Source: Christensenellaceae bacterium
GTDB lineage: Bacteria > Bacillota > Clostridia > Christensenellales > Borkfalkiaceae
Assembly (NCBI GenBank): GCA_045637285.1
Contig: JAZTZE010000010.1
Span: 9,249 to 73,248 of the forward strand
Direction of reading: 5' to 3'
DNA: 64,000 bases
A program made the translations under genes and the position numbers. Below are positions 29,417 to 51,317 of the stretch, one piece after another; the stretch's first letter is position 1; every line of letters starts with the position of its first letter. The notes under the pieces were generated by a model. The model was given only the letters and a program-made list of their open reading frames with translations, was not told where the DNA came from and did no database searches.

Positions 29417-29423
29417 GGTAAAA

Positions 29424-30764: not shown

Positions 30765-31891
30765 TGTTAAAGCGGTTATTGATAAAAAGTAAAAAAAATA
30801 AAACGTACGGCGACTACTTACTGTTAGTCGCCGTCGTTCTTCTTGCGATTATAGGAACTGTGTTTATTTATTCTGCGAGTAACTATACCGCTAAAAAAAC
30901 CTACGGCGACCCCTTTTATTTTGTAAAGAAGCAGATAATCGGAATCGTTTTAGGTTTGTGTGTGATGATTGTTTTATGTAATTATGATTATTTTAAATTA
31001 AAGAAGTTCACAAGAGTGGTTTCAATAGTTAGTATAGTTTTGCTTGCGCTTGTATTCGTGCCGGGGGTTGGTGTTGAAAATTATGGAGCAAAGCGGTGGA
31101 TAGGCGTGGGTGGCGCAACGCTTCAACCGTCAGAAGTGGCAAAGTTCGCATTAATTTTATTTAGCGCAAACTACGTTAGTAATCACCCCGAAAGAATTAA
31201 AAAATTTTGGGGCATTATTCCCGTTTTGCTTTTTGGTGGAAGCGTTTGTTGTTTGATAATAATCGAGCCAAATATGTCTATAACCGTTTGCGTTGCGTTA
31301 CTAATGATGACTATGTTGTTGGTTGGCGGGATGAGAATAAAGCATTTTTTTCTTTTAGCACTTCCTGCTGTTGTTTTCGGTGTGGTGCTTATATTGGTTG
31401 AACCTTATAGATTGAGCAGATTGATGGCGTTCATAAACCCATGGTCTAACCCCAAAGGCGAAGGCTATCAATTACTACAATCTTTGTATGCGCTCGGTTC
31501 AGGTGGTTGGTTTGGCGTAGGGCTTTTTAATTCTCGCCAAAAGTTTGCTTTTTTGCCGTTTGCGGAATCCGATTTTATTCTGTCGGTAATTGGTGAAGAA
31601 ATTGGCTTTGTCGGGCTATTTTTCTTTTTTGCTTTATTGTTTTTTATCGTGTATCGCGGGCTTAAAATTGCGTCGAGAGCAAAAGACGTTTTTGGGTTTA
31701 TGTTAGCGGTTGGCATAACTATGATTTTTGGGATACAAACTATAATAAACGCGCTTGTGGTTACGGGTAGTATTCCGCCGACTGGGCTTCCGCTCCCGTT
31801 GGTTTCAAGCGGTAATACGTCTATAATAATTTTTATGGCGGAAATGGGCGTGCTTCATAACGTTTCAAGACAAGGTTCTTTAACTTTTTAG
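30761..31891 (+). CDS. ftsW: SEDS-family peptidoglycan polymerase FtsW/SpoVE
   Basis: 376 aa polytopic protein. ...GAKRWIGVGGATLQPSEVAKF..., ...FAESDFILSVIGEEIG..., and PPTGLPLPLVSSGNTS. Confidence 0.9.
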   Translation: MMLKRLLIKSKKNKTYGDYLLLVAVVLLAIIGTVFIYSASNYTAKKTYGDPFYFVKKQIIGIVLGLCVMIVLCNYDYFKLKKFTRVVSIVSIVLLALVFVPGVGVENYGAKRWIGVGGATLQPSEVAKFALILFSANYVSNHPERIKKFWGIIPVLLFGGSVCCLIIIEPNMSITVCVALLMMTMLLVGGMRIKHFFLLALPAVVFGVVLILVEPYRLSRLMAFINPWSNPKGEGYQLLQSLYALGSGGWFGVGLFNSRQKFAFLPFAESDFILSVIGEEIGFVGLFFFFALLFFIVYRGLKIASRAKDVFGFMLAVGITMIFGIQTIINALVVTGSIPPTGLPLPLVSSGNTSIIIFMAEMGVLHNVSRQGSLTF

Positions 31892-31937
31892 TTGTGTTTT
31901 CCATAATATGATATATCTATACGAATAGGAGAGCATT

Positions 31938-33188
31938 ATGGAAAAATACGTTATAAACGGGGGTAAGAGATTAGACGGTTGTGTGACTATAGAAAGTGCT
32001 AAAAACTCAGTATTACCACTTTTAGCCGCGTGCGTATTAACGGACGAACAAGTAGTAATAAAAAACTGCCCCAAAATTGAAGACGTTTTAAGCATGATAA
32101 AAATACTTAATTCTATTGGTGTAAAGACTCGGTTTGAATCAAAAAATCTTATCGTTGATGCAAGTGGGATAAATTCGTTTAGCATAAACGAAGATTTGGC
32201 GAAGGAGCTTAGGTCTTCGGTTTTTATGATGGGTGCGTTGCTATCGAGAACGGGAAAGGCAAGGTTGTTTTTTCCGGGCGGGTGCGATATAGGGCTTAGA
32301 CCGATAGATTTACACTTGAGCGCGTTAAAAGAGCTCGGTGTAAGCGTGAAAGAAATGAATGGTGAAATAATATGCGAAGCGGATAAAGTTTATGGGCGAG
32401 AAGTGTATTTAGACTACCCGTCCGTTGGGGCTACTGAAAACTTAATGCTCGTTGCAGTTATGGCACAGGGCAAAACCGAAATACATAATCCAGCCAAAGA
32501 ACCCGAAATAATCGACTTGATGAAGTTTTTAAATTCCATGGGGGCAAAAATTTACGGAGCAGGGACTTCAACTATACTAATTGAAGGGGTAAAAAGACTG
32601 CATGGAACGGAGTTTTTGCCTATTTCGGATAGAATCGAAGCGGGAACTTTTTTGCTTGCCACGGCTATAACGGGCGGAGAGGTGGAATTAAGTAATTGCC
32701 AAGCAAAAAATATTTCTTCTTTATTACATAAATTATGTAATAATACTTGTAAAGTTAGTATAAAAAATGATATAATATATTTAAAAAGTGGGGTTGGGAG
32801 AAAAAGCTTCTCTTTTTCTACTGGTCCATACCCGTTTTTCCCCACCGATTTGCAAGCTCAAACGATGGCGTTGCTCGCTGTTAGCGACGGGGTTTCCGTC
32901 GTTACGGAAAACGTGTTCGAGATGCGTTTTAAGCACGTAGCTGAGTTTATAAAGATGGGGGCAGACGTTTCGGTAAAGGGAAGGTCGGCAATTATAAATG
33001 GTGTTAGCGGGTTGAACGGCGCAACAGTAACCGCGCACGATCTTAGGGGCGGAGCGGCTCTCGTGCTGGCGGGGCTTAACGCTCGCGGGCAAACTACTAT
33101 TGAAGAAGTAAAGCACATTAAGCGCGGATATTTGGATTTTGACAAAAAATTACGTGCGATAGGTGCAGACATAAAATTATTGGAATAG
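31938..33188 (+). CDS. murA: UDP-N-acetylglucosamine 1-carboxyvinyltransferase
   Basis: 416 aa. ...SAKNSVLPLLAA... and the active-site loop FPGGCDIGLRPIDLH (Cys retained). Confidence 0.93.
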   Translation: MEKYVINGGKRLDGCVTIESAKNSVLPLLAACVLTDEQVVIKNCPKIEDVLSMIKILNSIGVKTRFESKNLIVDASGINSFSINEDLAKELRSSVFMMGALLSRTGKARLFFPGGCDIGLRPIDLHLSALKELGVSVKEMNGEIICEADKVYGREVYLDYPSVGATENLMLVAVMAQGKTEIHNPAKEPEIIDLMKFLNSMGAKIYGAGTSTILIEGVKRLHGTEFLPISDRIEAGTFLLATAITGGEVELSNCQAKNISSLLHKLCNNTCKVSIKNDIIYLKSGVGRKSFSFSTGPYPFFPTDLQAQTMALLAVSDGVSVVTENVFEMRFKHVAEFIKMGADVSVKGRSAIINGVSGLNGATVTAHDLRGGAALVLAGLNARGQTTIEEVKHIKRGYLDFDKKLRAIGADIKLLE

Positions 33189-33201
33189 GTTATACGAAAA
33201 T

Positions 33202-33984
33202 ATGAACACAAAGAAAATATCGGTAATCTTAATGGCGGTGGCGTTTTTTATCGTTGCAATTGTTTCGTGCATCGGTGTTTTAACGGTTAAAGACGTTAAC
33301 GTAACTTACGCGGTTTCTGACCAAACGGATGCTCGCGCTATTCAAGTTGCGCTTGATAAAACGATTGGCAAGAACTTGTTGTTCTTATCTGAAGAAGAAG
33401 TTAAGGAAACTTTAAAGGGCAACCATTATATGGAAGTCCTTTCTGTGGACAAGCAGTTTCCTAACGTGGTTAAAGTTGAAGTAAAAGAACGTAGGGAAGT
33501 TTATTACACCGAATACGAAGGTCAAACTTACGTTACTGACGAAAAGGGCTTTGTTCTAAAGCAAGGTCTTCCGAGCGGTGAGCAAAGGGAAATAATAAAA
33601 CTCGTTCTCGGTGATGGAATCGTGCTTTCACAGGTTGCCCCCGGAAGTTATATTAAAACTGATAACGACGAGCTTTTGTCGCTCGTGTTTAATATTGCAA
33701 AAAGTGTTAATCTTACCGATTGCATAGAAAGCATTTTCGTTGAAAGAGCACTTGGATACAACGATGAATACGACGTTGTTTTTAAGGCGTATACCGGCGT
33801 TGAGTTGCGAGTATTAAAAGTGCTTCAAAACGGCAAAGAAAAAGCAAAAAATGCGTTTAAGGCTTACGATGAGAAATTAACCGACTATCAAAAGTTTTCA
33901 GGTGAAATATTGTCGTTGCTCACAGACGATGGCAAATATATGGTCAACTATAACGGTATAAACGTTATGACTATCGAACAATAG
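33202..33984 (+). CDS. ftsQ: Cell division protein FtsQ/DivIB
   Basis: 260 aa. N-terminal TM plus POTRA-like region. Sits between mur genes and ftsA. Confidence 0.7.
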   Translation: MNTKKISVILMAVAFFIVAIVSCIGVLTVKDVNVTYAVSDQTDARAIQVALDKTIGKNLLFLSEEEVKETLKGNHYMEVLSVDKQFPNVVKVEVKERREVYYTEYEGQTYVTDEKGFVLKQGLPSGEQREIIKLVLGDGIVLSQVAPGSYIKTDNDELLSLVFNIAKSVNLTDCIESIFVERALGYNDEYDVVFKAYTGVELRVLKVLQNGKEKAKNAFKAYDEKLTDYQKFSGEILSLLTDDGKYMVNYNGINVMTIEQ

Positions 33985-33998
33985 GAAGGGTGTAAACG

Positions 33999-35111
33999 AT
34001 GCAAAAGAAACAAGTTGCGGTAATAGACGTTGGCTCGTCTAAAATAACTGCGGTAATAGGCGAAAGGGGAACGAACAAAACCTTTATTATCAAGGGCAGA
34101 TACTCTTGTGAATACGAAGGTTTTGAAGATGGCGTTTTCTTTGACATAAAAAACATGCAAAGCGCACTCGGTTATGTGGCTAACGAAATAAAGAAAAATC
34201 TTCTTAACGGCGTGCAAACGGTTTATGTGGGCGTTCCAGGGGACTTTACCAAGGTGTTTATGAAGGATAGCCAAATTTCCTTTGCTAAAAAGAAGAAAAT
34301 CACCGAAGAAGACGTTGATGCGTTATTTGACGGTGCGTTTATGTTGGGTTCGACGTCGCACACTCTTATCAATCGTTCAGCGATAGTTTATGAATTAGAC
34401 GACTTCCGTCGTTTAGCAAATCCCGTTGGTTCAATTAGTGAAATTTTAAACGGCAAGCTTTCTTTCGTATTATGTTCAAACTATTTTATTGATGCGGTTA
34501 AAATGGTGCTCGAACAAGCTGGGATAAATAACGTAGAATTCGTTTCAACCGCACTTGCGCAAGCACTTTATTTGGTTGATGCCGAAGCAAGAGATAGAAT
34601 AGCGGTTCTTGCAGACGTTGGATATATTACTACCAACGTGACCATTATTCAAGGTGACGGACTTGTTTGTCAGCACACTTTCCCGTTTGGTGGCGGATAT
34701 ATAACGGCAGGAATAGTGGATAAGTTTTCAATTCCGTTTGACGTTGCGGAAAAGTTGAAGAGAAAAGTTAATTTAAGTTGTGTTTCTTCATCAACGTCAT
34801 TTGACGTATTGGACGGTGAAAACGGAGATTATTACCCAATAAGTGGTGTTAAAGATGCTGTTTTTAGCAGTCTTGATGCATTATGTGAAAGTCTTTCGGG
34901 GTTTATTGACGGTTGCGGATTTGTTCTTCCGGATTACGTTCCGCTTATGATAACAGGCGGGGGTATTACTTATATCCGTGGAGCAAAAGAGCACGTTTCT
35001 TCCAGACTGGGCATGGCTGTGACTGTTGTTGCGCCAAAAGTTCCACTAATGGACAAGCCCACTGAATCCACGTTGCTTTCGTTATTAGACTTAGCACTTG
35101 AACAAAAATAA
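33999..35111 (+). CDS. ftsA: Cell division protein FtsA (short form, 370 aa)
   Basis: Actin-like fold with VAVIDVGSSKITAVIG and ...ITGGGITYIRGA.... Immediately upstream of ftsZ. Confidence 0.85.
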   Translation: MQKKQVAVIDVGSSKITAVIGERGTNKTFIIKGRYSCEYEGFEDGVFFDIKNMQSALGYVANEIKKNLLNGVQTVYVGVPGDFTKVFMKDSQISFAKKKKITEEDVDALFDGAFMLGSTSHTLINRSAIVYELDDFRRLANPVGSISEILNGKLSFVLCSNYFIDAVKMVLEQAGINNVEFVSTALAQALYLVDAEARDRIAVLADVGYITTNVTIIQGDGLVCQHTFPFGGGYITAGIVDKFSIPFDVAEKLKRKVNLSCVSSSTSFDVLDGENGDYYPISGVKDAVFSSLDALCESLSGFIDGCGFVLPDYVPLMITGGGITYIRGAKEHVSSRLGMAVTVVAPKVPLMDKPTESTLLSLLDLALEQK

Positions 35112-35145
35112 ATAACACGTTTGTAAAGAAAAGGAGTATAGATAT

Positions 35146-36351
35146 ATGTACGGTCAAGAAATGTTTAACGCAAACTCTGCAGTAATAAAGGTAATTGGTG
35201 TTGGTGGCGGTGGTTGTAATGCCATAAACAGCATGATAGATTCTAACGTTACCAGTGCAGAATTTATCGCGGTAAATACTGATAATCAAGCACTTTTGCT
35301 TTCTAAAGCTAGCAAAACGCTTCAAATAGGTTTAAAATTAACTAAAGGCTTAGGCGCAGGCAGTGACCCTAACGTAGGTGAAGCTGCGGCTGAAGAGTCG
35401 AAAGAAGAAATTATAGAACTTTTGCAAGGAACGGACTTATTGTTTATAGCGTCTGGTATGGGCGGTGGCACAGGTACTGGTGCAGCTTCTGTAATTGCGA
35501 GAATTGCTCGCGAACTCGGCATACTTACCGTTGCCGTTGTAACCAAGCCATTTATGTTTGAAGGCAAGGTTAGAAACGAAAATGCAAACAAGGGTATTTC
35601 AAATCTTAAAAAATACGTTGATACACTCGTTGTGATTCCTAACGACAAATTGTTGCAATTTTTACCCGCGCAAACGGGTATGCTTGAAGCGTTTAAGGTT
35701 GCAGACGATATGTTAAAACAGGGTATCGTTGGTATAGTAGAACTTATTGCAACGCCATCGCTTATCAATCTTGACTTTGCAGACGTTAACACGGTTATGC
35801 GCAATCAAGGCTTAGCCCATATGGGTATCGGCAAGGCTAAGGGTGAAAACAGAATTATTGAAGCGGTTAGACAAGCTGTTTCGAGCCCGCTTTTGGAAAC
35901 TACTATTGAGGGCGCAAAATCTGTTATACTCAACGTTTCTGGCGGAAAAGATCTTATGCTTAACGAAATTAGCGAAGCTGCCGAACTCGTTCAAGGTATA
36001 ATTGACGAATCTGCAAACATTATTTTCGGTGCTTCAGTTGATGCTAATGGTATTGATGAAGTTAAAATAACCGTAATTGCAACAGGTTTTGCATCGGGAA
36101 ACGACTTCGATCAACCAAAAGATAACGTTGCCGTAAAACCTGCATCTTTTGTGACCGAAAGGCAACCTGTTATAGACGAATCAATACCACCGCTTCTCCG
36201 TGATGCGGACTTGTACTCTAAGGATGAAATCGTTGAAGAGCCTGTTCAAGAAGAAATTAAAATAGAACCTGCTCCTATATTTGAGCCTGAACAAGAACAG
36301 CCGAAGGGAAGAGAGCTTCCTGCATTTATGAGAAAATTGTTCAAAAAATAA
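35146..36351 (+). CDS. ftsZ: Cell division GTPase FtsZ
   Basis: VIGVGGGGCNA, GMGGGTGTGAA, and the conserved C-terminal peptide ELPAFMRKLF. Confidence 0.98.
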   Translation: MYGQEMFNANSAVIKVIGVGGGGCNAINSMIDSNVTSAEFIAVNTDNQALLLSKASKTLQIGLKLTKGLGAGSDPNVGEAAAEESKEEIIELLQGTDLLFIASGMGGGTGTGAASVIARIARELGILTVAVVTKPFMFEGKVRNENANKGISNLKKYVDTLVVIPNDKLLQFLPAQTGMLEAFKVADDMLKQGIVGIVELIATPSLINLDFADVNTVMRNQGLAHMGIGKAKGENRIIEAVRQAVSSPLLETTIEGAKSVILNVSGGKDLMLNEISEAAELVQGIIDESANIIFGASVDANGIDEVKITVIATGFASGNDFDQPKDNVAVKPASFVTERQPVIDESIPPLLRDADLYSKDEIVEEPVQEEIKIEPAPIFEPEQEQPKGRELPAFMRKLFKK

Positions 36352-36472: not shown

Positions 36473-36548
36473 TGGTCGGAGTAGCGAGACTTGAACTCAC
36501 GGCCTCTTGCCCCCCAGACAAGCGCGCTACCAACTGCGCCATACCCCG
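36473..36548 (-). tRNA. tRNA-Pro (anticodon GGG), CCA encoded
   Basis: Minus strand CGGGGTATGGCGCAGTTGGTAGCGCGCTTGTCTGGGGGGCAAGAGGCCGTGAGTTCAAGTCTCGCTACTCCGACCA folds as a cloverleaf. Anticodon loop CUGGGGG, T-loop TTCAAGT. Confidence 0.9.
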
Positions 36549-40926: not shown

Positions 40927-40988
40927 ATGTAAAAAAGTTGCCTAAAAATTTTAATTGTGTTAAAATCGAATTTAATGAGGTGACACGA

Positions 40989-41783
40989 ATGGAAATTATT
41001 GACGCACACGCACATATTTACCCCGAAAAGATTGCACAAAAAGCCACGGAAACGATTGGCGTTTTTTATGATATAAAAATGGAAATGCCTGCAGGCACGG
41101 CTGAAAGGCTAATTGAAGAAGGTGCGAAAGCAGGTGTTAAAAGATACGTCGTTCACTCTGTTGCAACTACCGCCCATCAGGTTCGTTCAATAAACCAATT
41201 TATAAAAAGTCAAATGGAAATTCACCCCGAATTTATTGGGTTTATGACGTTGCATCAAGACTTAACAGAAGAGCAGGTTAAATCAGAGATTGATTGGGCA
41301 ATTGAAAACGGGTTTAAGGGCATAAAATTACACCCTGATTTTCAAAAATTTAATATAGACGATCCGTTGGTGGAAAAGTTTTACGTTCACGCTGGGGGTA
41401 AACTTCCTATCCTATTTCATGTAGGCGACGATAGGTTTGATTATTCCAAGCCACAAAGACTTGTTAACGTTGCTAAAAAATTCCCGGCAGTTAACTTTAT
41501 TGCTGCCCATTTCGGTGGATACCGTTGCTGGGAAGACGCGCATATTTATAAAGGGCTAAGTAACGTTTATTTTGACACATGCTCGTCGCTCGCGTTCATA
41601 ACGCCCGAAAAAGCAAGGCAAATTATTGATATTCTTGGTGCAGATAAGTTCTTTTTTGCGACTGATTTTCCGATGTGGGATGCGGTGGGTGAACTTGAAC
41701 GTTTTAACAAAATAAATTTAAGCGAAAAAGAGCGCGAAATGATTTTTAGTCTTAACGTTAAAAAGTTGTTAAAAATCGTATAA
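40989..41783 (+). CDS. Amidohydrolase-2 / TIM-barrel metal-dependent hydrolase family protein
   Basis: MEIIDAHAHIYPEKI..., ...KLHPDFQ..., ...HFGG... and ...ATDFPMW. GAGGTGA RBS. The ORF-track TTG at 40938 is unlikely. Confidence 0.7.
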   Translation: MEIIDAHAHIYPEKIAQKATETIGVFYDIKMEMPAGTAERLIEEGAKAGVKRYVVHSVATTAHQVRSINQFIKSQMEIHPEFIGFMTLHQDLTEEQVKSEIDWAIENGFKGIKLHPDFQKFNIDDPLVEKFYVHAGGKLPILFHVGDDRFDYSKPQRLVNVAKKFPAVNFIAAHFGGYRCWEDAHIYKGLSNVYFDTCSSLAFITPEKARQIIDILGADKFFFATDFPMWDAVGELERFNKINLSEKEREMIFSLNVKKLLKIV

Positions 41784-41789
41784 AAATAC

Positions 41790-41819
41790 TTGACAAAATG
41801 CGGTTTTTGGATATATAAT
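41790..41819 (+). promoter_or_regulatory. Promoter P1, TTGACA-18-TATAAT
   Basis: TTGACA at 41790-41795 and TATAAT at 41814-41819. Confidence 0.65.
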
Positions 41820-41835
41820 ACACAAAAAAATAAAA

Positions 41836-42056
41836 CGCAATGAAGGAAACAGACGTTTTAAGTTGATTAGAGAATTGGCGGTTGGTGCAAGCCAAGGAAG
41901 CGAAAAACGTTACTCATTCCCGAGCGGAAACGGCGAACAATTTTAGTAGGCGTTTACGGAGCTTCCGTTACAAGCAAAGAGTGGCCACGAGTTTGTGGCA
42001 ATTCGGGTGGCACCGCGGTTTAATAATCGTCCCTGACAGTTTGTCAGGGCTTTTTT
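41836..42056 (+). promoter_or_regulatory. T-box leader 1 (complete Stem I). Best-geometry specifier is CUC (Leu), but the discriminator-reading base is C
   Basis: K-turn CGC-AAUGA-AGGAA / UUCC-C-GA-GCG. AGAGA at 41869-41873. Distal loop GGTTGGTGCAA. CUC-A at 41913-41916 directly 5' of the UUCC helix. F-box CCGTTA. T-box AATTCGGGTGGCACCGCGG. Terminator CCCTGACA-gtt-TGTCAGGG followed by T-run. Confidence 0.85.
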
Positions 42057-42108
42057 ATTTTTTAATCGTTTATAGTGTGCTAAAAAACCAATACACTCAA
42101 TTATTTGC

Positions 42109-42138
42109 TTGACATTCGGTGTGTTATTATTATATAAT
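42109..42138 (+). promoter_or_regulatory. Promoter P2, TTGACA-18-TATAAT, located between the two T-box leaders
   Basis: TTGACA at 42109-42114 and TATAAT at 42133-42138. Confidence 0.6.
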
Positions 42139-42164
42139 TTTATATAATAATTTAATTGTCCGAA

Positions 42165-42352
42165 ATAAAAAGGAAGGGGATACGAAGCAAGCAATTTGCT
42201 TAAAGATGGAACGTATCAATCCGATGTATACGCACAAACCAGTAACCGTTTACGGATAACTCTGTTAAAGGTTTTAAGTGGCCGTGTTTTACGGCAATTC
42301 GGGTGGTACCGCGGTTATCAATCGTCCCTGACTTTACGTCGGGGATTTTTTA
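42165..42352 (+). promoter_or_regulatory. T-box leader 2 (paralogue of leader 1 with an atypical or abbreviated Stem I). Tentative specifier AUC (Ile)
   Basis: The 3' half is nearly identical to leader 1: CGTTTACGGA, CTGTTA, GCCGT/ACGGC stem III, AATTCGGGTGGTACCGCGG, and terminator TCCCTGAC...GTCGGGGA followed by T-run. No AGAGA or distal loop recognised. AUC-A at 42215-42218 precedes AUCC. Confidence 0.7.
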
Positions 42353-42383
42353 TTTTGAACAATTCATTGTTAGGAGATAGGTT

Positions 42384-43763
42384 ATGAACAAAATTATCGT
42401 GTCAGACTCAACTTTAATATCGGTTAAAGAACAAAACTCAACGCTTACTTTCAGAGAAAGATTGGCTATTTCAAACTGCCTAAACTCTATGAAGGTTGAT
42501 GCAATCGAACTTCCCGCACTAACCGTTTCAAAAGAAGACGAAATAATCTATCGCACTATTTCAGATTCAATTACAAATGCAACCGTTAAAATATCAGTTG
42601 GTAGTGACGAAGCGTTAATAGCAAACGCAGTTGCTTGTGTCAAGAACGCAAGTGACGTTTGCTTGCAAGTAGTGATGCCCGTTTCTACGGCACAAATGGA
42701 ATATTTTTATCACCTTAAAGCTCCTGCTATGCAAGAAAAAATTTGCGCACTCGTTAAAAAGGCAAAGGAGTATTGCGACAAGGTTGAATTCGTCGCTCAA
42801 GACGCGTTCAGGGCAGAAGCAGGTTTTGTTGCTAATTGTGCTAAGTCTGCTTGTGAAACTGGCGCGACTTCAATCGTAATAAGCGATGATGCAGGCGACG
42901 CGTTTCCTGAAGACTTTGCAAAAATCGTAAAGGAAGTTAAGGGCGTTTGTGATCTTAAAGTTTTAGTTAAGCCGTCAAATAAACTTCAGTTATCAGCTTC
43001 CTGTGCGCTCGAAGCAATCAAGGCTGGAGCTGATGGTGTTGTTACTTCAGTTTGCGGTAATTATCTTTGCCCAAGCGTTATTTCCGATATCGTAAGGGCT
43101 AAAAAATTCGATCTTAACGTTGATTGCGATTTAGACGTTTGTAACGTTAAAACTATTAGCCAAATTATTAGCGGAATGGCTTGCGAACAAGTTCAAGCCG
43201 TGCAACAAGCAGGTGTTAACGGAAATATTGATACCAATGCAAGTGCATCTACCGTTTGTGCAATGATAAGTCAGCTTGGCTATGAGCTTTCTGATTCTGA
43301 TATAGGAAAAGTTTACGAAGAATTCAAAAAGTTATCGGCAAAAAAGGAATCTATCGACACAAAAGAGCTTGAAGCAATAATTGCAAGCACGGCTATGCAA
43401 GTCCCTTCAACCTATCATTTAATCAATTACGTTGTAAACAGCAGTAACATAATTTCTGCAACTGCAAACATAACGCTTGAAAAAGATGGCGAAAAATTAA
43501 CCGGTGTTTCTACGGGAGACGGACCTATTGACGCGGCATTCCATGCGATTGAACAAGTTATCGGACATCATTATGAGTTGGATGATTTCCAAGTTCACGC
43601 AGTAACAAAGGGCAGGGGCGCGGTTGGTTCTTCAATAATAAGACTTAGAGCGGACGGAAAGCTTTATCCCGGTAACGGTGTTTCTACCGATATTGTAGGA
43701 GCGTGTATCCGTGCATATATTAACGCTCTTAATAAAATCGTATACGAAGGAGAGCAAAAATGA
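42384..43763 (+). CDS. 2-isopropylmalate/citramalate synthase homologue with degenerate catalytic motifs and an intact LeuA-type C-terminal regulatory domain (probable pseudoenzyme)
   Basis: DSTLISVKEQ replaces DTTLRDGEQ. VKPSNKLQLSA replaces HxHNDxGLA. CGNYLCPS replaces GIGERAGN. C-terminus GDGPIDAAFHAIEQV...VHAVTKGRGAVG...NGVSTDIVGACIRAYINALNK is typical LeuA_dimer. Confidence 0.75.
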   Translation: MNKIIVSDSTLISVKEQNSTLTFRERLAISNCLNSMKVDAIELPALTVSKEDEIIYRTISDSITNATVKISVGSDEALIANAVACVKNASDVCLQVVMPVSTAQMEYFYHLKAPAMQEKICALVKKAKEYCDKVEFVAQDAFRAEAGFVANCAKSACETGATSIVISDDAGDAFPEDFAKIVKEVKGVCDLKVLVKPSNKLQLSASCALEAIKAGADGVVTSVCGNYLCPSVISDIVRAKKFDLNVDCDLDVCNVKTISQIISGMACEQVQAVQQAGVNGNIDTNASASTVCAMISQLGYELSDSDIGKVYEEFKKLSAKKESIDTKELEAIIASTAMQVPSTYHLINYVVNSSNIISATANITLEKDGEKLTGVSTGDGPIDAAFHAIEQVIGHHYELDDFQVHAVTKGRGAVGSSIIRLRADGKLYPGNGVSTDIVGACIRAYINALNKIVYEGEQK

Positions 43764-46210
43764 AACTCTCGTTCGTAGACAGCATGGTTCAAACGTCAAG
43801 TTTTTTGGAACTTTGTAACGTTGCAAAAAGCTATTCGTTCGACGGAATTGAAATTTTCGACGTTAAGAAAGAAAAAATCCAACACGCCGACAGTATATTC
43901 CGCTCAGCGATGACTGCAGATGCCAAAAGAAAACTTGTAAATAGACATATTGCAATTTCCGCAATATCATATCCTAATAAAATTAATTCAAAAACATCGG
44001 TTCAAGACGTCAACAAATACGTGGAATACGCTGCGCTTGCTTCAATCAAAAACGTTGTAGTAGTGCTTGATGATTTTGATTGTTTAGATAGCATCAAAGG
44101 CGTTTTATCTCCGATTATCGACTTTGCAAGCTTAAACGGCGTTAGCATTTTGATTGAAACTTGCGGTGATATGAGCAGAACTGAAAAGGTTTTGGAAGTT
44201 ATAAACTACTTTGGCTCAATCGTGTTAAAAGTTTGTTGGAATATTCGCGAAACATTTTTCAACGCAAAGGAAAGTGCAGACAACACCATTCAAACCTTAG
44301 GCGCGTACATAGCGCACGTTCGTTTAGGAGACAGAAAGGACGGAAAAGACGTTCTTCTTGGTGAAGGGGAACTTCCAGTTGTCGACTTTATTAACGCTCT
44401 TCGTTCGCTTAATTACGACGGGTACGTTTCGGTTATGAGTTCGGGCGAAATAACTTCTGCTGATATTATTCTCACTCACTATAAAAGCCGTTTATCTATA
44501 AGTTCAAGAGAAGTTAGCAACAAAGCCGTATATTACAACCGTTCAAAAACAGGCACGCATCCTTGGAAGAAATACGACGTTTTAGACGTAACTTTTTCAC
44601 AAGTGCTCGATAAGATGGTTGAATATTATCCCGACCAATACGCTTTTAAGTATACCACGCTCGATTATACAAGAACCTATTCTGAATTTAGAGACGATGT
44701 GGATAGGGTTGCGGCTGCGCTCATTTCACTTGGCGTTGAGCCGGGGCATCACGTTGCTATTTGGGCAACGAACGTTCCACAATGGTTTTTAACTTTCTGG
44801 GCAACGGTAAAAATCGGTGCTGTTTTAGTTACGGTAAACACCGCTTATAAAATTCACGAAGCAGAATATTTGTTCCGACAATCAGACACGCATACTCTCG
44901 TTATGATTGACAGTTGCAAAGATTCTAACTACAAAGAAATCGTTGAAGAACTTTGTCCCGAACTTAAGAATACGCAAGCGGGAAACCCGCTTTACTCGAA
45001 AAAGTTACCATTCTTGCGCAACGTTATAACCGTTGGCTTTAATATGGACGGATGCTTAGAGTGGAACGATTTTGTTAAACGTTCTTCACTTATTCCACAA
45101 GAAGAAGTTCGTCGCAGAGCTTCAACCGTTCAACCTGACGACGTTTGCAATATGCAATACACTTCGGGAACAACAGGCTTTCCTAAGGGTGTAATGCTCA
45201 CGCATAGAAACATTGTTAACAACGGCAAGATAATCGGCGACAGGATGGATATTTCAACTGCCGATAGAATGATGATACAAGTGCCTATGTTCCACTGCTT
45301 TGGCATGGTGCTTTCAATGACGAATATGATGACACACGGCGGAACCATTTGTCCGATGCCGTATTTCTCACCAAAATCGTCGCTTGCTTGTATTAACGAC
45401 GAAAAAATCACTTGTTTTAACGGCGTTCCTACAATGTTTATTGCAATGTTTGCACATTCTGACTTTGCAAAAACTGACTTTTCACATATCCGCACGGGAA
45501 TAATGGCTGGTGCAAATTGCCCGCCCGAATTGATGAGAAAGGCTGCTGCGGAAATGAATATGTCCGAAATTATAAGCGTTTACGGTCAAACCGAGGCTTC
45601 CCCTGGTTGTACAATGGGAGAAGTTAACGAAGATATAGATCACCGTGTTGAAACGGTTGGGAGTGCGTTCCCAGGTGTAGAGTGTAAAATTATTGACCCA
45701 GAAACTGGCGAAGAGTTGCCTGACGGTGAAAACGGTGAATTCGTTGCTCGTGGCTATAATATAATGAAAGGTTATTATAAAATGCCAAAAGCAACCGAAC
45801 AAACTATTGACGCTGACGGATGGCTTCACAGCGGAGATATTTGCTGTAGAACTCCAGACGGATATTTTAAGGTAACCGGCAGATTAAAGGATATGATTAT
45901 TCGTGGTGGCGAAAACTTGTATCCGAGAGAAATAGAAGAGTTTTACCTTACACACGAAAAGGTTAAAGACGTTCAAGTCGTTGGCGTTCCAGACAAGAGA
46001 TACGGCGAAGAAGCTTGCGCGTATATCGTTCTTAAAAAGGGTGAAAGCTCTGACGAAAACGAAATGCGCGAATACGGCAACGCGCACATGGCAAAACACA
46101 AAGTGCCAAGATATTTCGTGTTCGTGAAAGACTTCCCAATGAATGCTGCGGGCAAGATATTAAAGTATAAAATGCGTGAAGACGCTATAGAAATATTAAA
46201 TTTGAAATAA
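43760..46210 (+). CDS. Fusion protein: xylose-isomerase-like TIM-barrel domain (about aa 1-250) plus AMP-forming acyl-CoA synthetase (about aa 260-816)
   Basis: N-terminal half has FDGIEIF, SILIETCG, and HVRLGD...LGEGELPVVDFINALRSLNYDGYVSV. C-terminal half has MQYTSGTTGFPKGVMLTH, GQTE, WLHSGD, GRLKDMIIRGGENLYP and AAGKILK. Confidence 0.8.
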   Translation: MKLSFVDSMVQTSSFLELCNVAKSYSFDGIEIFDVKKEKIQHADSIFRSAMTADAKRKLVNRHIAISAISYPNKINSKTSVQDVNKYVEYAALASIKNVVVVLDDFDCLDSIKGVLSPIIDFASLNGVSILIETCGDMSRTEKVLEVINYFGSIVLKVCWNIRETFFNAKESADNTIQTLGAYIAHVRLGDRKDGKDVLLGEGELPVVDFINALRSLNYDGYVSVMSSGEITSADIILTHYKSRLSISSREVSNKAVYYNRSKTGTHPWKKYDVLDVTFSQVLDKMVEYYPDQYAFKYTTLDYTRTYSEFRDDVDRVAAALISLGVEPGHHVAIWATNVPQWFLTFWATVKIGAVLVTVNTAYKIHEAEYLFRQSDTHTLVMIDSCKDSNYKEIVEELCPELKNTQAGNPLYSKKLPFLRNVITVGFNMDGCLEWNDFVKRSSLIPQEEVRRRASTVQPDDVCNMQYTSGTTGFPKGVMLTHRNIVNNGKIIGDRMDISTADRMMIQVPMFHCFGMVLSMTNMMTHGGTICPMPYFSPKSSLACINDEKITCFNGVPTMFIAMFAHSDFAKTDFSHIRTGIMAGANCPPELMRKAAAEMNMSEIISVYGQTEASPGCTMGEVNEDIDHRVETVGSAFPGVECKIIDPETGEELPDGENGEFVARGYNIMKGYYKMPKATEQTIDADGWLHSGDICCRTPDGYFKVTGRLKDMIIRGGENLYPREIEEFYLTHEKVKDVQVVGVPDKRYGEEACAYIVLKKGESSDENEMREYGNAHMAKHKVPRYFVFVKDFPMNAAGKILKYKMREDAIEILNLK

Positions 46211-46229
46211 TTTTAGTAGGTGAGATACT

Positions 46230-47294
46230 ATGGAAATCAAAATTGAAAAAGCAAAAGTATTAAAACAAAAACCCGATTTTTCAAAACTCGGTTTTGGTAA
46301 ATATTTTACCGACCACATGTTTGTGATGGAATACACCGAAGGTGAAGGCTGGAAAAATGCGAGAATAGTCCCGTTCGATTATATTCCCATTCACCCTGCA
46401 TCTACCGTTCTTCATTACGGTGCGGAAATTTTTGAAGGCATGAAAGCTTATAGAACGGCAGACGGATATCAAATGTTCCGTCCGTTAGAAAACGTTAAAA
46501 GAATGAACGATTCAGCAGAAAGACTTTGTCTTCCCACACTTCCTGAAGAGTTTACTTTGAAAGCTTTAACAGAGCTTATTAACATTGACTACGATTGGAT
46601 TCCCGACCAAGAAGGAACGTCTCTTTATATTCGTCCTTTCATGTTTGGTAACGACGAGTCGTTGGGCGTTCACGCTGTTCACAACGCAACTTTCGTTATA
46701 ATCTTATCGCCTGTTGGCAGTTATTACGCAGAAGGTCTTAATCCTGTTAAAATCAGCATTGAAAGTGAAGACGTTCGTGCCGTTCGTGGTGGAACGGGCT
46801 ACGCTAAGTGTGGTGGTAATTACGCTGCAAGTTTAAGAGCGGGCAAACGCGCTGCTGAAAAAGGCTTTACGCAAGTATTGTGGCTTGACGGGGTTGAAAG
46901 AAAATACATCGAAGAAGTTGGCGCAATGAACGTTATGTTCAAGATTAACGGCGAAATCGTTACGCCTATGCTCACAGGTTCAGTTCTTCCCGGTATAACA
47001 AGAAAATCTTGTCTTGAAATCTTAAAAGAATGGGGCTATAAGGTAACCGAAAGACTAATTTCAGTTGACGAACTTATAGCTGCTGCACAAGACGGAACAC
47101 TTGAAGAAGCGTGGGGCACTGGCACTGCTGCGGTAATTTCACCCATCGGTCACTTGTTCTATAAGGACGTTGACTATACAGTTGCAGGCAACAAAATCGG
47201 TCCGCTCGCTCAAAAACTTTACGACGAAGTTACTGGCATTCAATGGGCTAAGAGAGAAGACACGCGTGGCTGGTGCTATAAGGTTAAAGTTTAA
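46230..47294 (+). CDS. ilvE: Branched-chain amino acid aminotransferase
   Basis: 354 aa class IV aminotransferase. ...FTDHMF..., HYGAEIFEGMKAYR, GGTGYAKCGGNYAASL and GITRKS. Confidence 0.92.
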   Translation: MEIKIEKAKVLKQKPDFSKLGFGKYFTDHMFVMEYTEGEGWKNARIVPFDYIPIHPASTVLHYGAEIFEGMKAYRTADGYQMFRPLENVKRMNDSAERLCLPTLPEEFTLKALTELINIDYDWIPDQEGTSLYIRPFMFGNDESLGVHAVHNATFVIILSPVGSYYAEGLNPVKISIESEDVRAVRGGTGYAKCGGNYAASLRAGKRAAEKGFTQVLWLDGVERKYIEEVGAMNVMFKINGEIVTPMLTGSVLPGITRKSCLEILKEWGYKVTERLISVDELIAAAQDGTLEEAWGTGTAAVISPIGHLFYKDVDYTVAGNKIGPLAQKLYDEVTGIQWAKREDTRGWCYKVKV

Positions 47295-47962
47295 TGTTTG
47301 ATAAAAGAATTACGGTGTTCATGGGGCATTACGGTAGTGGAAAGACCTTTATTTCGGTTAATTACGCACTCGCTCTTGCTAAAATGAACAAAAAGGTAAG
47401 CATCTACGATTTGGACATAGTAAATCCTTATTTCAGAACCAAAGATGCAACTAAAATGTTAGACGACAACGGTGTTGAGTTAGTTGTTTCTAAGTTTGCC
47501 CAAACCAACGTGGATATTCCTGCAATGAACGCAAAGTCTTATAAAATGCTCGACGACACTTCTCGCTATGCTGTAGTAGATATCGGTGGTGACGACAGGG
47601 GAGCTTTGGCTTTGGGAAGATTTCGTGACGGAATTATTAAAGAAAACGACTATCAAGCGTTGTTTGTTGTTAATAATCGTCGTCCTGAAACTCGCGACAT
47701 TGAAGGTGCGATGGAAATAAAAGCAGAAATAGAGCAAAGTGGCGGGCTTAAATTCACAGGGATAGTCAACAATGCTAATTTAGGCTGGGAAACTACGGAA
47801 AAAACCGTGCTTGACGGCGTTGAGTTTACCAATGAACTTTCAAAAATAACGGGTCTACCCGTAAAATTTACCGCAATCAGAAAAGATTTGATTACGGGAG
47901 AATTATTAAAAATAAAACAAATTTTGCCGATTGAGCCTATAAAATACGGCGATTGGCAGTAA
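47294..47962 (+). CDS. SIMIBI-class P-loop NTPase (MinD/CooC/Mrp-like), function unknown
   Basis: 222 aa. Walker A GHYGSGKT, and VVDIGGDD. Start overlaps the ilvE stop (TAATG). Confidence 0.65.
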   Translation: MFDKRITVFMGHYGSGKTFISVNYALALAKMNKKVSIYDLDIVNPYFRTKDATKMLDDNGVELVVSKFAQTNVDIPAMNAKSYKMLDDTSRYAVVDIGGDDRGALALGRFRDGIIKENDYQALFVVNNRRPETRDIEGAMEIKAEIEQSGGLKFTGIVNNANLGWETTEKTVLDGVEFTNELSKITGLPVKFTAIRKDLITGELLKIKQILPIEPIKYGDWQ

Positions 47963-47972
47963 AGGAGAAAAC

Positions 47973-48179
47973 ATGGCAAAAGTAACTTTTGACGAAGAGC
48001 GTTGCAAAGGTTGTGGATTGTGTGAAACCGTTTGCCCTAAGCAAATTATCGCACTTTCAAACGAAAAAATCAACGCTAAAGGCTATCATCCGGCAGTTTG
48101 TACCGACTCGGAAAAATGTATTGGTTGTGCTTTTTGTGCAACAATGTGTCCCGACACGGTTATAACGGTGGAAAAGTAG
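47973..48179 (+). CDS. 2-oxoacid:ferredoxin oxidoreductase delta subunit (2x[4Fe-4S] ferredoxin)
   Basis: 68 aa with CKGCGLCETVCP and CIGCAFCATMCP. Confidence 0.9.
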   Translation: MAKVTFDEERCKGCGLCETVCPKQIIALSNEKINAKGYHPAVCTDSEKCIGCAFCATMCPDTVITVEK

Positions 48180-48188
48180 AGGTGAATT

Positions 48189-49259
48189 ATGGCAGAAAAA
48201 GTATTAATGAAAGGTAACGAAGCTTTAGCCGAAGCGGCTATAATGGCAGGTTGCAAATATTATTTTGGTTATCCCATAACCCCGCAAACTGAAGTTGCTG
48301 CATATATGAGTAAGCGCATGCCCAAGATTGGCGGAACGTTTTTACAAGCAGAATCAGAAGTAGCGGCAATTAACATGGTAATTGGCGTTGCTGCTTGCGG
48401 TAAAAGGGTTATGACCAGTAGTTCAAGCCCAGGAATTTCATTAAAGAGCGAAGGTATATCTTATCTTGCTGGTTGTGATCTTCCTGCATTAATAGTAAAC
48501 GTTCAACGTGGCGGTCCTGGTTTAGGTGGTATTCAACCTTCTCAATCAGACTATTTCCAAGCGTTGAAAGGTGGCGGTCACGGTGACTACAAACTTATCG
48601 TTTTAGCACCTGCTTCTATTCAAGAAATGGTTGATTTAACGTTCAAGGGCTTTGACCTTGCTGATAAGTATAGAATGCAAGCAATGATTCTTGCAGACGG
48701 AACGATGGGTCAAATGATGGAACCGGTTAGCTTAGAGCTTGGCGAAGTAAAAGAATACAAAAAAGATTGGGCAACCACTGGTACGAGTACGCACGAAGGA
48801 AGAAATGTTGTTAACTCGTTGTCACTTAACGCTACTCAACTTGAACAATGGAATATCGACAGATATGAAAGATATAAAATCGTTGAACAAAACGAAGTTA
48901 TGTATGAAGAATTTATGATGGACGACGCTGATATTTGTATCGTTTCTTTCGGTATCGCTGCTCGTGTTTCAAAGAATGCGATTATGATGGCAAGAGAAAA
49001 GGGTATAAAGGTTGGTATGATTAGACCTATCACGTTATGGCCATTCCCCAAGGATGCGTTGCTTAAAGCTGCGGGCAAGGTTAAATCATTCTTATCAGTT
49101 GAACTTAATATGGGACAAATGGTTGATGACGTTAAACTCGCTATCAACTGCTCTAAGCCCGTATATTTCTACGGCAGAACTGGTGGCGTTATTATGACGC
49201 CGGACGAAGTTCTTGCTAAAATCGAACAAATCGAAAAAGGAGAAGCAAAACAATGGTAG
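48189..49259 (+). CDS. 2-oxoacid:ferredoxin oxidoreductase alpha subunit (VorA/KorA type)
   Basis: 356 aa. MKGNEALAEAAIMAGCKYYFGYPITPQTE... Confidence 0.88.
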   Translation: MAEKVLMKGNEALAEAAIMAGCKYYFGYPITPQTEVAAYMSKRMPKIGGTFLQAESEVAAINMVIGVAACGKRVMTSSSSPGISLKSEGISYLAGCDLPALIVNVQRGGPGLGGIQPSQSDYFQALKGGGHGDYKLIVLAPASIQEMVDLTFKGFDLADKYRMQAMILADGTMGQMMEPVSLELGEVKEYKKDWATTGTSTHEGRNVVNSLSLNATQLEQWNIDRYERYKIVEQNEVMYEEFMMDDADICIVSFGIAARVSKNAIMMAREKGIKVGMIRPITLWPFPKDALLKAAGKVKSFLSVELNMGQMVDDVKLAINCSKPVYFYGRTGGVIMTPDEVLAKIEQIEKGEAKQW

Positions 49260-49999
49260 TATTTGAAAAGACTAAAGGTCTTACAGACAATCCACTTCAC
49301 TATTGTCCGGGTTGCACGCACGGGATTATTCACCGTTTGGTTGCAGAATGCTTAGAAGAACTTGGCGTTACCGGCAAAACCATCGGTATAGCTTCAGTTG
49401 GCTGTTCTGTATTCTCTTATAATTATTTCAACTGTGATATGGTTCAAGCTGCACACGGCAGAGCACCTGCGGTAGCAACGGGCGTAAAGCGTGCTAACCC
49501 CGATAACATTGTATTTACTTATCAAGGCGACGGAGACCTCGCTGCAATCGGCACGGCTGAAACCGTTCATTCTGCAGCAAGAAACGAAAACATAACCATT
49601 ATTTTCGTTAACAACGCTATTTACGGTATGACTGGCGGTCAAATGGCTCCTACGACACTTCCTAACCAAGTAACGCAAACTTCACCTTACGGTAGAGACG
49701 TTACGGTTGTTGGCTATCCCGTTAGAGTTTGTGAAATGCTTTCTCAAGTTGAAGGTGCTTCATATCTCGAAAGAGTTGCAGTAAACAACGTTAAGAATAT
49801 CAAAAAAGCAAAACAAGCTATTAAGCATGCTTTCCAAAACCAAATAGAAGGCAAAGGTTTTTCTCTTATCGAAGTGTTATCAACTTGTCCGACGAACTGG
49901 GGTTTATCGCCCAAGGAATCATTAAAGTGGCTTGAAGAGAACATGGAAAAGAATTATCCTCTCGGTGTTTATAAAGACAAATATAAGGAGGAAAAATAA
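49253..49999 (+). CDS. 2-oxoacid:ferredoxin oxidoreductase beta subunit (TPP-binding)
   Basis: 248 aa with CPGCTHG, GDGD..AIG and NNAIYGMTGGQ. Confidence 0.9.
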   Translation: MVVFEKTKGLTDNPLHYCPGCTHGIIHRLVAECLEELGVTGKTIGIASVGCSVFSYNYFNCDMVQAAHGRAPAVATGVKRANPDNIVFTYQGDGDLAAIGTAETVHSAARNENITIIFVNNAIYGMTGGQMAPTTLPNQVTQTSPYGRDVTVVGYPVRVCEMLSQVEGASYLERVAVNNVKNIKKAKQAIKHAFQNQIEGKGFSLIEVLSTCPTNWGLSPKESLKWLEENMEKNYPLGVYKDKYKEEK

Positions 50000-50535
50000 T
50001 GAGTAAGACTACGAAAATACTTATTGCAGGCTTTGGTGGACAAGGTATTTTGTTTGCGGGTAAGGCTTTAGCGTTTACTGGGCTTAAATCAGGTATGGAA
50101 GTTAGTTGGCTTCCTTCTTACGGTCCTGAAATGCGCGGTGGCACGGCAAACTGTAGCGTAACGTTAAGTGATATTCCAATCGGTTCTCCGATTGTAGATA
50201 AACCTGACGTTTTGGTTGCGATGAACTTGCCTTCTTTAGAAAAGTATTTAAGCGAAACAGAAAAATCTGGCTACGTTATTTACGACAGCTCACTTATTTC
50301 TAAGGACGTTGAAAGGGCAGATGTTTCTATTTCAGGTATTCCCGCAACAAAAATGGCAAGCGATAACGGACTTAACGGACTTGCAAATATGATTATATTA
50401 GGCAAGGTAATCAAAGAAACTGGTGTTTTATCACTTGAACAAATCAAAACGAGCTTAGCACAAATGATTCCAGCTAAAAAAGCACATTTATTAGAAAGCA
50501 ATGTAAAAGCTATTGAATTAGGCTATAATTTCTAA
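49999..50535 (+). CDS. 2-oxoacid:ferredoxin oxidoreductase gamma subunit
   Basis: 178 aa. ILIAGFGGQGILFAGK...SYGPEMRGGTANC. Confidence 0.9.
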   Translation: MSKTTKILIAGFGGQGILFAGKALAFTGLKSGMEVSWLPSYGPEMRGGTANCSVTLSDIPIGSPIVDKPDVLVAMNLPSLEKYLSETEKSGYVIYDSSLISKDVERADVSISGIPATKMASDNGLNGLANMIILGKVIKETGVLSLEQIKTSLAQMIPAKKAHLLESNVKAIELGYNF

Positions 50536-50551
50536 TTATAAACGCAATTAA

Positions 50552-50582
50552 AAACGGAGTAGAAATGCTCCGTTTTTTTTGT
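50552..50582 (+). terminator. Strong intrinsic terminator ending the T-box operon
   Basis: AACGGAG-tagaaatg-CTCCGTT followed by eight T. Confidence 0.8.
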
Positions 50583-50640: not shown

Positions 50641-51273
50641 ATGTCGTTTTTCTGTAATTTTCAATCGGATAGATGTCCCGGGCAAATAAACGGAAATCCG
50701 TTAAACGGCTTGTGTGAAAAAGTTTGTGTGCAAGCAAAAAAGGTGTTTGACGCGTGCATGCAACAAACTCAGCTTAACAACGTAGTATTAAACGTCACTA
50801 ATTTAACGCCAGCAAATCCTACATATCCGTTAACGTTTATAAGTGCCAAAAGCACTGCTTCACAAGGAGTAATAAGCAATCTTATTATAGAACCACTTGC
50901 GGAAAGACCAAACTGTGCAAGAGTAAAAACAGACGTTATTATTCCCGTTTCGGTTGCTTATACCGACGCTAACGGCGTTGAAGGAGTTGGTACTGCTACA
51001 GTTACGGTCACTAAAGACGTTATATTAAACGTTCCGTCTGCTTCAATCATGCCATATAGTGTAGAATCAGTTGTTTCACTTGTTTCGACGTTGGGTGCAT
51101 ACAACACGGGAAATCAATTCACTATTGACGCTTGTGTTTCCATAATATTAAAAATCGTTATGGAAGTTGAATTGCTTATTCCATCTTACGGATATGCAGC
51201 AATTCCACCTTGCCAAGACTACACGCAAGAAGTATGCGCGGGATTTTTCGAGCTTCCAATGTATCCTGATTGA
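50641..51273 (+). CDS. Cys-rich hypothetical protein (monocistronic), no family recognised
   Basis: 210 aa. AAAGGAGG RBS. N-terminal CNF..C..C..C..C cluster, beta-rich middle, C-terminal PPCQDYTQEVC. Confidence 0.6.
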   Translation: MSFFCNFQSDRCPGQINGNPLNGLCEKVCVQAKKVFDACMQQTQLNNVVLNVTNLTPANPTYPLTFISAKSTASQGVISNLIIEPLAERPNCARVKTDVIIPVSVAYTDANGVEGVGTATVTVTKDVILNVPSASIMPYSVESVVSLVSTLGAYNTGNQFTIDACVSIILKIVMEVELLIPSYGYAAIPPCQDYTQEVCAGFFELPMYPD

Positions 51274-51289
51274 TAAAGTTTAATATTAA

Positions 51290-51317
51290 GAGCGTGAGCT
51301 TTCTCACGCTTTTTTTA
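51290..51317 (+). terminator. Intrinsic terminator
   Basis: AGCGTGAG-cttt-CTCACGCT followed by seven T. Confidence 0.75.

Follow-up and report, generated by a model that had tools for sequence, protein, structure and literature searches.

In Firmicutes, the ilv-leu and leuA operons are controlled by leucine T-boxes, of which the ilv-leu leader of Bacillus subtilis is an example. That rumen bacteria and methanogens carboxylate branched short-chain acids reductively belongs to the classical physiology of Allison and Bryant. For 60 years it has been known that anaerobes of the rumen and gut require isovalerate, 2-methylbutyrate and isobutyrate. Ruminants receive isoacids in their feed, and isovalerate is abundant in the rumen and hindgut. 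In the literature searched, the genes for branched-acid use in the dominant uncultured Clostridia have apparently never been pinned down. Here a 64-kb stretch of DNA from a Christensenellaceae bacterium (64,000 nt of contig JAZTZE010000010.1, assembly GCA_045637285.1; hereafter the window) is analysed computationally together with related loci. It carries an operon of eight genes (g1–g8) behind a leucine-specific T-box, in which an AMP-forming acyl-CoA ligase stands together with a branched-chain aminotransferase (BCAT) and a 2-oxoacid:ferredoxin oxidoreductase (OFOR). The operon probably serves leucine salvage or biosynthesis from isovalerate and would be induced by leucine starvation, a reading to which we give a probability of about 0.75.

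The physiology of branched-acid reductive carboxylation and every enzyme class in the operon are already known. Like the ilv-leu and leuA operons of Firmicutes, the locus gates leucine supply with a CUC T-box and an intrinsic terminator, and its first gene derives from leuA. Unlike them, it encodes a ligase, an OFOR and a BCAT in place of LeuABCD and IlvBNCD, its LeuA-like gene has no active site, and a second T-box, devoid of Stem I, has its own promoter. With the rumen and methanogen physiology it shares the proposed succession from acid to acyl-CoA, then to 2-oxoacid (through OFOR, ferredoxin and CO2) and finally to amino acid. It differs in having a bacterial delta–alpha–beta–gamma OFOR of VorB/KOR-like type, with a low score against the archaeal VorA model, and in its dedicated AMP-forming ligases and riboswitch, which are not part of the classical account. 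For reductive carboxylation by archaeal VOR, bioRxiv 10.1101/401489 cites its refs 24–25. Catabolic clusters of gut Firmicutes likewise join an aminotransferase to a ferredoxin-dependent 2-oxoacid oxidoreductase acting on branched skeletons, but they run in the opposite direction, gain ATP through a phosphotransacylase and a kinase, and have no T-box. The cluster of Blautia hydrogenotrophica comprises an aminotransferase, a 2-keto acid oxidoreductase, PTB and BUK, and not an AMP-forming ligase (PMC2903421), and porA of Clostridium sporogenes functions in the catabolism of branched-chain amino acids (BCAAs; bioRxiv 10.1101/401489). Among acyl-CoA ligases, purified MbcS of Staphylococcus aureus is selective for 2-methylbutyrate and isobutyrate and uses isovalerate poorly (PMC10026030).

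The T-box leader and the eight-gene transcription unit

All elements of the operon lie on the plus strand. Promoter P1 (41790–41819; TTGACA-N18-TATAAT, 12/12) is followed by a complete T-box leader at 41831–42037, recognized by Rfam model RF00230 with 116.6 bits against a gathering cutoff of 93 (E 4e-25). The specifier is CUC (41913–41915, followed by A), a leucine codon. In the fold of Stem I, ACUCA occupies the specifier loop, and the AGAGA and GGUGCAA elements, which correspond to the AG bulge and distal loop, are both present. The antiterminator, GGGUGGCACCGCG, would compete with a terminator at 42031–42049 that consists of an 8-bp stem and a T-run. The acceptor-binding bulge reads UGGC (42008–42011), and UGGU in all 121 other T-boxes of the related loci and the window. 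Uncharged tRNA-Leu(GAG) would pair with both the CUC specifier and this bulge, and the pairing would stabilize the antiterminator, allowing RNA polymerase to read into g1–g8.

Further downstream, a second promoter, P2 (42109–42138; again TTGACA-N18-TATAAT, 12/12), precedes a partial T-box copy at 42200–42332 that retains Stem II/III and an antiterminator with a UGGU bulge, and has its own terminator (42324–42346). This T-box 2 was detected at a relaxed threshold (55.4 bits, under the Rfam cutoff). It is a duplicate whose alignment with T-box 1 covers the 3′ two-thirds of the latter, with ~90 columns of Stem I deleted, and without Stem I and any leucine specifier it cannot decode an anticodon. 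Both promoters are kept in the related species L006 (related loci are cited by L numbers), which also shows the arrangement of a promoter and a Stem-I-less T-box (8400–8590).

The eight open reading frames (ORFs) form one co-directional block (42384–50535) with start/stop overlaps at 43760, 47294, 49253 and 49999 and gaps of 9–19 nt at the remaining junctions. No convincing terminator was found in a scan inside the g1–g8 block, and the operon ends at a terminator with a 12-bp stem, a 4-nt loop and a T-run (50550–50577). An earlier note on this DNA, prepared from the sequence alone, had described eight tightly packed co-directional genes with four overlaps and a single end terminator, and both the ORF coordinates and the terminator scan confirm this. 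The gene content that it listed, namely a LeuA-like protein, a TIM-barrel–ligase fusion, a BCAT, a P-loop protein and the delta, alpha, beta and gamma subunits of an OFOR, is matched by Pfam and NCBIfam domains. Its mention of T-box leaders in the plural needs qualification: two T-box elements are indeed present, but only the first is complete, the second being the Stem-I-less duplicate with a separate promoter.

Ligase types and T-box specifiers in related loci

Full-length relatives of the g2 fusion number >594 in GTDB species, and the best 80 loci were compared. Their metagenome-assembled genomes (MAGs), most of them from the guts of ruminants, bear the labels Christensenellaceae, Acutalibacteraceae, Oscillospiraceae or Clostridia/Eubacteriales; the closest relatives of the window operon are Christensenellaceae MAGs from yak gut. 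Throughout the best 80 loci, g1 stands directly before g2 wherever upstream sequence is available, the distance from the g1 stop to the g2 start being −4 to +12 nt in 72 of 76 loci. The P-loop gene always lies directly before the delta–alpha–beta–gamma genes, often with BCAT alongside, and this set is found in 38 loci. Co-occurrence of the genes across Clostridia, a point raised in the earlier note, is seen in these loci for the g1–g2 pair and, in 38 of them, for the P-loop–OFOR set. A full g1–g2 pair (67% identity) also occurs in L060 and L062, two loci from MAGs labelled Spirochaetales, possibly through horizontal transfer or a binning error.

Many loci contain two more ligases between g2 and BCAT. 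These are fusions of HTH_3, Cupin_2 and AMP-binding domains of ~755 and ~797 aa (e.g. L003, 13630–15897 and 16134–18527), sharing 62% identity with each other and 27% with g2. Such helix-turn-helix (HTH)–cupin ligases combine enzyme and regulator in a way reminiscent of BirA; none was found in the window. In these multi-ligase loci, one BCAT/P-loop/OFOR set follows the last ligase, and in the window it directly follows the ligase of the leucine unit.

A scan with nhmmer yielded 122 T-boxes in the related loci and the window, with specifiers read from the model alignment, and each ligase unit has its own T-box in front. For the g1–g2 unit, 61 specifiers are readable: 58 CUC and two CUG, both leucine codons, and a single CCC. 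The first HTH–cupin ligase is preceded by AUC (isoleucine) in 29 of 30 cases, the thirtieth being an alignment artefact that also reads AUC. In front of the second, the specifier is a valine codon in 22 of 25 cases (GUA 21, GUC 1) and AUC in three, which are not real exceptions because the corresponding ligases match both paralogs with equal scores. Alignment to the Rfam covariance model confirmed the AUC and GUA specifiers of L003. Further T-boxes near the cluster carry UUC (Phe) or AUG (Met) specifiers (L023 6138, L030 6094, L024 2885 and L064 7199).

This match between ligase type and specifier over ~80 genomes is, like the RNA element with its specifier, the gene families and the packing of the operon, a direct observation. 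That each ligase type carries the T-box of its cognate amino acid argues strongly for a route from acid through acyl-CoA and 2-oxoacid to amino acid. The CUC specifier, the presence of only the Leu-type ligase and the lack of an Ile or Val ligase in the window together point to the leucine (isovalerate) branch of that route. The conversion of isovalerate, 2-methylbutyrate and isobutyrate to Leu, Ile and Val, as the earlier note had envisaged it, is accordingly supported by the relatives as far as the route is concerned; its attribution to the window as a general one-ligase pathway does not stand, the operon there being leucine-specific. The specifiers act as built-in labels, indicating the amino-acid product and, by inference, the acid substrate for three uncharacterized ligase families and a widespread VorB-type OFOR. 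Such labels make the pathway testable and searchable in metagenomes. In the full-text literature searched, no description was found of a T-box-gated operon of this composition, of the Leu/Ile/Val triad of T-box-labelled ligases, or of the LeuA pseudoenzyme, the TIM–ligase and HTH–cupin–ligase fusions and the OFOR-linked P-loop protein, in line with the earlier note, to whose author no described, dedicated T-box-regulated operon with these accessory proteins was known.

In loci with three ligases, the shared OFOR and BCAT genes are transcribed together with that of the Val ligase, from which 17 nt separate them in L003, so that leucine shortage alone would need read-through or basal expression to reach them. 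Four relatives (L014, L017, L018 and L021) are devoid of a T-box. There, g1–g8 are contiguous, and a sigma-70 promoter, a ribosome-binding site and a leader ORF are located ~200 nt upstream of g1. The ORF encodes a conserved peptide of 34–36 aa with Ile/Leu runs (e.g. ...ANILLLIAIIILAII...). In L014 the leader region spans 8350–8580, the leader peptide is MSTALFMAYILLINAIIILLGEHGMNSAICRVCK, and a terminator hairpin comes after it. The arrangement resembles a leader-peptide attenuator that replaces the T-box and would be expected to sense amino-acid starvation. One operon type would thus be governed by a T-box in most lineages, and at least four relatives would use a leader peptide instead.

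The ligase and the probable fate of its product

The g2 protein (43760–46210; Pfam) is a fusion of a xylose-isomerase-like TIM barrel (AP_endonuc_2, aa 1–~260, 57 bits) and an AMP-forming acyl-CoA ligase (aa ~270–816), the latter matching AMP-binding PF00501 with 322.7 bits and AMP-binding_C PF13193 with 65.6 bits. The core motifs of ANL enzymes (TSGTTGFPKG, YGQTE, GRxKD and the C-terminal Lys) are invariant in 78 g2 sequences, and conservation in the ligase region is mostly ~0.9 per 30-residue block, the TIM domain being less conserved. The best NCBIfam match is PRK12583, with 674 bits (cutoff 832). Because of its leucine T-box context, g2 is proposed to be an isovalerate-CoA ligase.

The AMP-forming ligases of the relatives that are gated by Ile and Val T-boxes have MbcS (NF047394) as their nearest curated family, with 437–440 bits and thus under the cutoff of 850. 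They differ from MbcS in their N-terminal HTH and cupin domains and in their proposed role, which is to feed amino-acid and not lipid synthesis. The acid preference of MbcS fits the Ile and Val ligases, and a different ligase would then be needed for leucine; g2 indeed represents a different branch, at the 27% identity to these MbcS-like enzymes given above. The established role of MbcS is in branched-chain fatty acid synthesis (PMC10026030), and by analogy the ligases might supply acyl-CoA primers to FabH, amino-acid synthesis not being their goal. We consider this very improbable, given that control is exerted by the aminoacylation of tRNA-Leu, -Ile and -Val and not by lipid status, that the ligase gene shares a transcript with those for OFOR and BCAT, two enzymes required only for reaching the amino acid, and that the match to MbcS remains well under the family cutoff (437 versus 850).

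For the synthesis of leucine, the route would continue with g3–g8. The BCAT encoded by g3 (46230–47294; ilvE type II) exceeds the curated NCBIfam cutoffs of NF009897 (467.9 bits, cutoff 307) and TIGR01123 (379.1 bits, cutoff 250). The subunit set of the OFOR is complete, with a delta subunit resembling a 2×[4Fe-4S] ferredoxin (g5, 47973–48179; Pfam, NCBIfam), an alpha subunit of the VorB family (g6, 48189–49259), a beta subunit that binds thiamine pyrophosphate (g7, 49253–49999; Pfam, NCBIfam; cysteines Cys18, Cys21, Cys51 and Cys212) and a gamma subunit (g8, 49999–50535; PF01558, 134.8 bits). The alpha subunit contains the POR_N and PFOR_II domains and a YPITP motif. It passes the VorB model NF005507 with 550 bits (cutoff 399), and reaches only 257 bits with OorA (cutoff 579), 98 with PorA (550), 71 with IOR (651) and 77 with archaeal VorA. 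Affiliation with 2-oxoglutarate- or pyruvate-specific enzymes, an outcome that would have spoken against the earlier note, is not seen in these scores, which for the OGOR, POR and IOR models lie far below the cutoffs. From this context, the OFOR probably acts on a branched-chain acyl-CoA and the corresponding 2-oxoacid.

In the proposed sequence of reactions, the ligase domain of g2 would activate isovalerate to isovaleryl-CoA, the VorB-type OFOR (g5–g8) would convert isovaleryl-CoA, CO2 and reduced ferredoxin to 4-methyl-2-oxopentanoate, and BCAT (g3) would transaminate the latter to leucine. Gene families and genomic context are the grounds on which we infer which substrates the ligase and the OFOR use, in which direction the flux runs, that leucine starvation induces the operon, and what the accessory proteins do.

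The OFOR and BCAT reactions are reversible, and an aminotransferase with an OFOR ferments BCAAs in B. hydrogenotrophica (PMC2903421) and C. sporogenes (bioRxiv 10.1101/401489). The same genes could in principle oxidize leucine or other BCAAs to acyl-CoA for fermentation, with the ligase only loosely linked to them. Such a catabolic operon has hardly any probability here. A T-box activates its genes in response to uncharged tRNA-Leu, a state in which leucine should not be degraded. The operon encodes neither PTB/BUK nor an ADP-forming synthetase, through which ATP could be conserved, and AMP-forming ligases run toward acyl-CoA. Moreover, three ligases each have a cognate T-box, and some relatives have an Ile/Leu leader-peptide attenuator. 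The earlier preference for biosynthesis over fermentation gains support from the CUC, AUC and GUA T-boxes, which match three ligases around one BCAT/OFOR set.

A LeuA pseudoenzyme and other accessory proteins

The first gene, g1 (42384–43763; Pfam, NCBIfam), encodes a LeuA-like protein with an HMGL-like DRE-TIM barrel and a LeuA_dimer domain (PF08502, 103.9 bits). It shares with LeuA (2-isopropylmalate synthase) the two-domain architecture, the fold and the loops of the LeuA_dimer domain; it differs in having neither the metal ligands, nor the GERAGN motif, nor the catalytic Arg, and in belonging to a separate clade of proteins of ~455–480 aa. The best score with a LeuA model is 228.7 bits and does not reach the curated equivalog cutoff of 532, and in an exhaustive search of representative sequences canonical LeuA proteins appear only at ≤172 bits. 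Compared with LeuA of Neisseria meningitidis (3rmj), DTTLRDGEQ has become DSTLISVKE, the HCH triplet of the HxH motif has become KPS, and GERAGN is gone. The metal-binding Asp and both His ligands are missing in all of 75 g1 homologs from related loci. The Arg/Asp and HxH positions are occupied by I-S and K-P-S in the window protein, and by K/R-K/E/Q and Q/K..S across the 75 homologs; the catalytic Arg is thus gone from the window protein, and K or R is found at its position in most relatives. The GERAGN motif is lost throughout the family. The description as a dead LeuA, given in the earlier note, is borne out by the loss of all three metal ligands in the whole family.

The best conserved part of the g1 family is the C-terminal LeuA_dimer domain, the counterpart of the allosteric domain with which LeuA binds leucine (per-column identity ~0.85 versus 0.5–0.7 among the 75 homologs), in which the hallmark loops GDGPIDA... 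and GNGVSTDI... are invariant. The AlphaFold2 (AF2) model of g1 shows a confident TIM barrel, and its Foldseek matches are structures of IPMS, MAM and homocitrate synthase. NCBI annotates proteins of the family as hypothetical. A genuine LeuA of a leu operon is rejected as the identity of g1, as catalytic residues are lost family-wide and no leuBCD genes are seen alongside in the examined loci. The 150 best representatives include no Rosetta-stone fusion of g1 with g2; each of them is ~455–480 aa long or a fragment. Since catalysis is lost, the allosteric domain is strongly conserved and the gene is always adjacent and translationally coupled to g2, our best guess, made at lower confidence, is that g1 may be a leucine-sensing regulatory partner of the g2 ligase. 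If true, LeuA would offer a clear example of a biosynthetic enzyme reused as a pseudoenzyme with a probable sensor function.

In the TIM domain of g2, E133 and D191 are invariant, and where MJ1311 has its D, H and E ligands, the aligned positions hold N161, R188/Y186 and A/M226. By this comparison, the domain appears to have lost part of the canonical metal site of xylose-isomerase-like proteins. Directly upstream of promoter P1 lies a gene for an Amidohydro_2 protein (40938–41783, plus strand; PF04909, 95.4 bits), with HxH, His and Asp motifs intact in its sequence. The gene is part of the conserved neighbourhood of g1–g2: a homolog adjoins the g1–g2 unit in 27 of 73 assessable loci, directly downstream of g2 in 20, upstream in six and ~400 nt further downstream in one. 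A sequence search of the PDB returned only uncharacterized structural-genomics entries for it.

These proteins give rise to another explanation, in which leucine has a different precursor. The Amidohydro_2 protein, the LeuA-like protein and the TIM domain would then not be regulatory or degenerate modules but genuine enzymes, acting on another acid before or after its activation with CoA. In favour of this, the TIM domain keeps the invariant residues E31, E133, E171 and D191, g1 retains the LeuA-like polar residues E106, Y107, K112, D140, R143 and D168, the Amidohydro_2 motifs are intact in a gene adjacent in 27 of 73 loci, and the N-terminal domains of the Ile and Val ligases are of quite another kind. 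These features do not suffice to make it more than an unlikely alternative, as g1 is devoid of the Asp/His/His metal triad required by all DRE-TIM lyases and synthases, the canonical ligand set of the TIM domain is incomplete, Amidohydro_2 is absent from 46 of the 73 loci, and the three-step route from isovalerate already explains the conserved core.

The remaining accessory gene, g4 (47294–47962; Pfam CbiA/ParA), encodes a small P-loop NTPase of the SIMIBI class with a Walker A motif, GHYGSGKT, and no cysteine; the CbiA and ParA families are its only Pfam matches, and these are weak. Its AF2 model (pLDDT 79.5) gives generic SIMIBI matches in Foldseek (MinD/FleN, NifH and SRP GTPases; TM 0.44–0.55), from which no specific function emerged. 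Homologs in annotation sources are called hypothetical or MinD-like. A role as an Fe-S carrier or NifH-like protein is unlikely for want of a cysteine. Its constant synteny with the delta gene and its generic SIMIBI fold suggest, as a guess of lower confidence, an NTPase for assembly or maturation of the OFOR.

A more far-reaching scheme takes in all these components. Abundant uncultured gut Clostridia of the orders Christensenellales and Oscillospirales would possess a full, doubly regulated reverse BCAA pathway with three T-box-gated ligases, each with a sensor module, one NTPase-matured OFOR and one BCAT. Ligases for isovalerate, 2-methylbutyrate and isobutyrate would each stand behind the cognate T-box; g1 would feedback-inhibit the isovalerate-CoA ligase through a complex with the TIM domain, and the HTH–cupin domain would be the sensor for the Ile and Val ligases. 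This extended scheme is tentative and, taken as a whole, somewhat unlikely. If true, the reverse route may replace ilv/leu synthesis and explain the dependence on branched-chain volatile fatty acids.

Observations that weigh against an isovalerate-to-leucine route

Several observations tell against the assignment of the window operon to leucine synthesis from isovalerate. At the level of the leader, the UGGC bulge of T-box 1 would mispair with A73, the usual discriminator base of tRNA-Leu, and the terminator of the Stem-I-less T-box 2 must also be passed. A leucine T-box in front of a LeuA-derived gene could, in part, be inherited from an ancestral T-box–leuA operon. At the level of the enzymes, g2 is below the cutoff of every named NCBIfam model, and isovalerate is assigned to it by context only. 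In the OFOR, the beta, gamma and delta subunits (g7, g8 and g5) pass no specific model, and the nearest solved relatives (1yd7, 8ys5 and 6n2n for g6) include 2-oxoglutarate enzymes (OGORs). Finally, the three-step scheme leaves two recurrent features without a role, the conserved TIM domain and the Amidohydro_2 gene that is often found nearby.

Genomic surroundings

Upstream of the operon, the window contains a dcw cluster of cell-wall and division genes (25123–36351; spoVD, murE, mraY, murD, spoVE/ftsW, murA, ftsA and ftsZ), followed by a tRNA-Pro(GGG) gene on the minus strand (36473–36548). Flanked by this cluster, the operon lies in the chromosomal core of a spore-forming Firmicute. Downstream, an ORF of 210 aa (50641–51273) with its own terminator (51288–51313) matches no Pfam family; it is conserved, with 82–84% identity, immediately after the operon in L001, L004 and L006.

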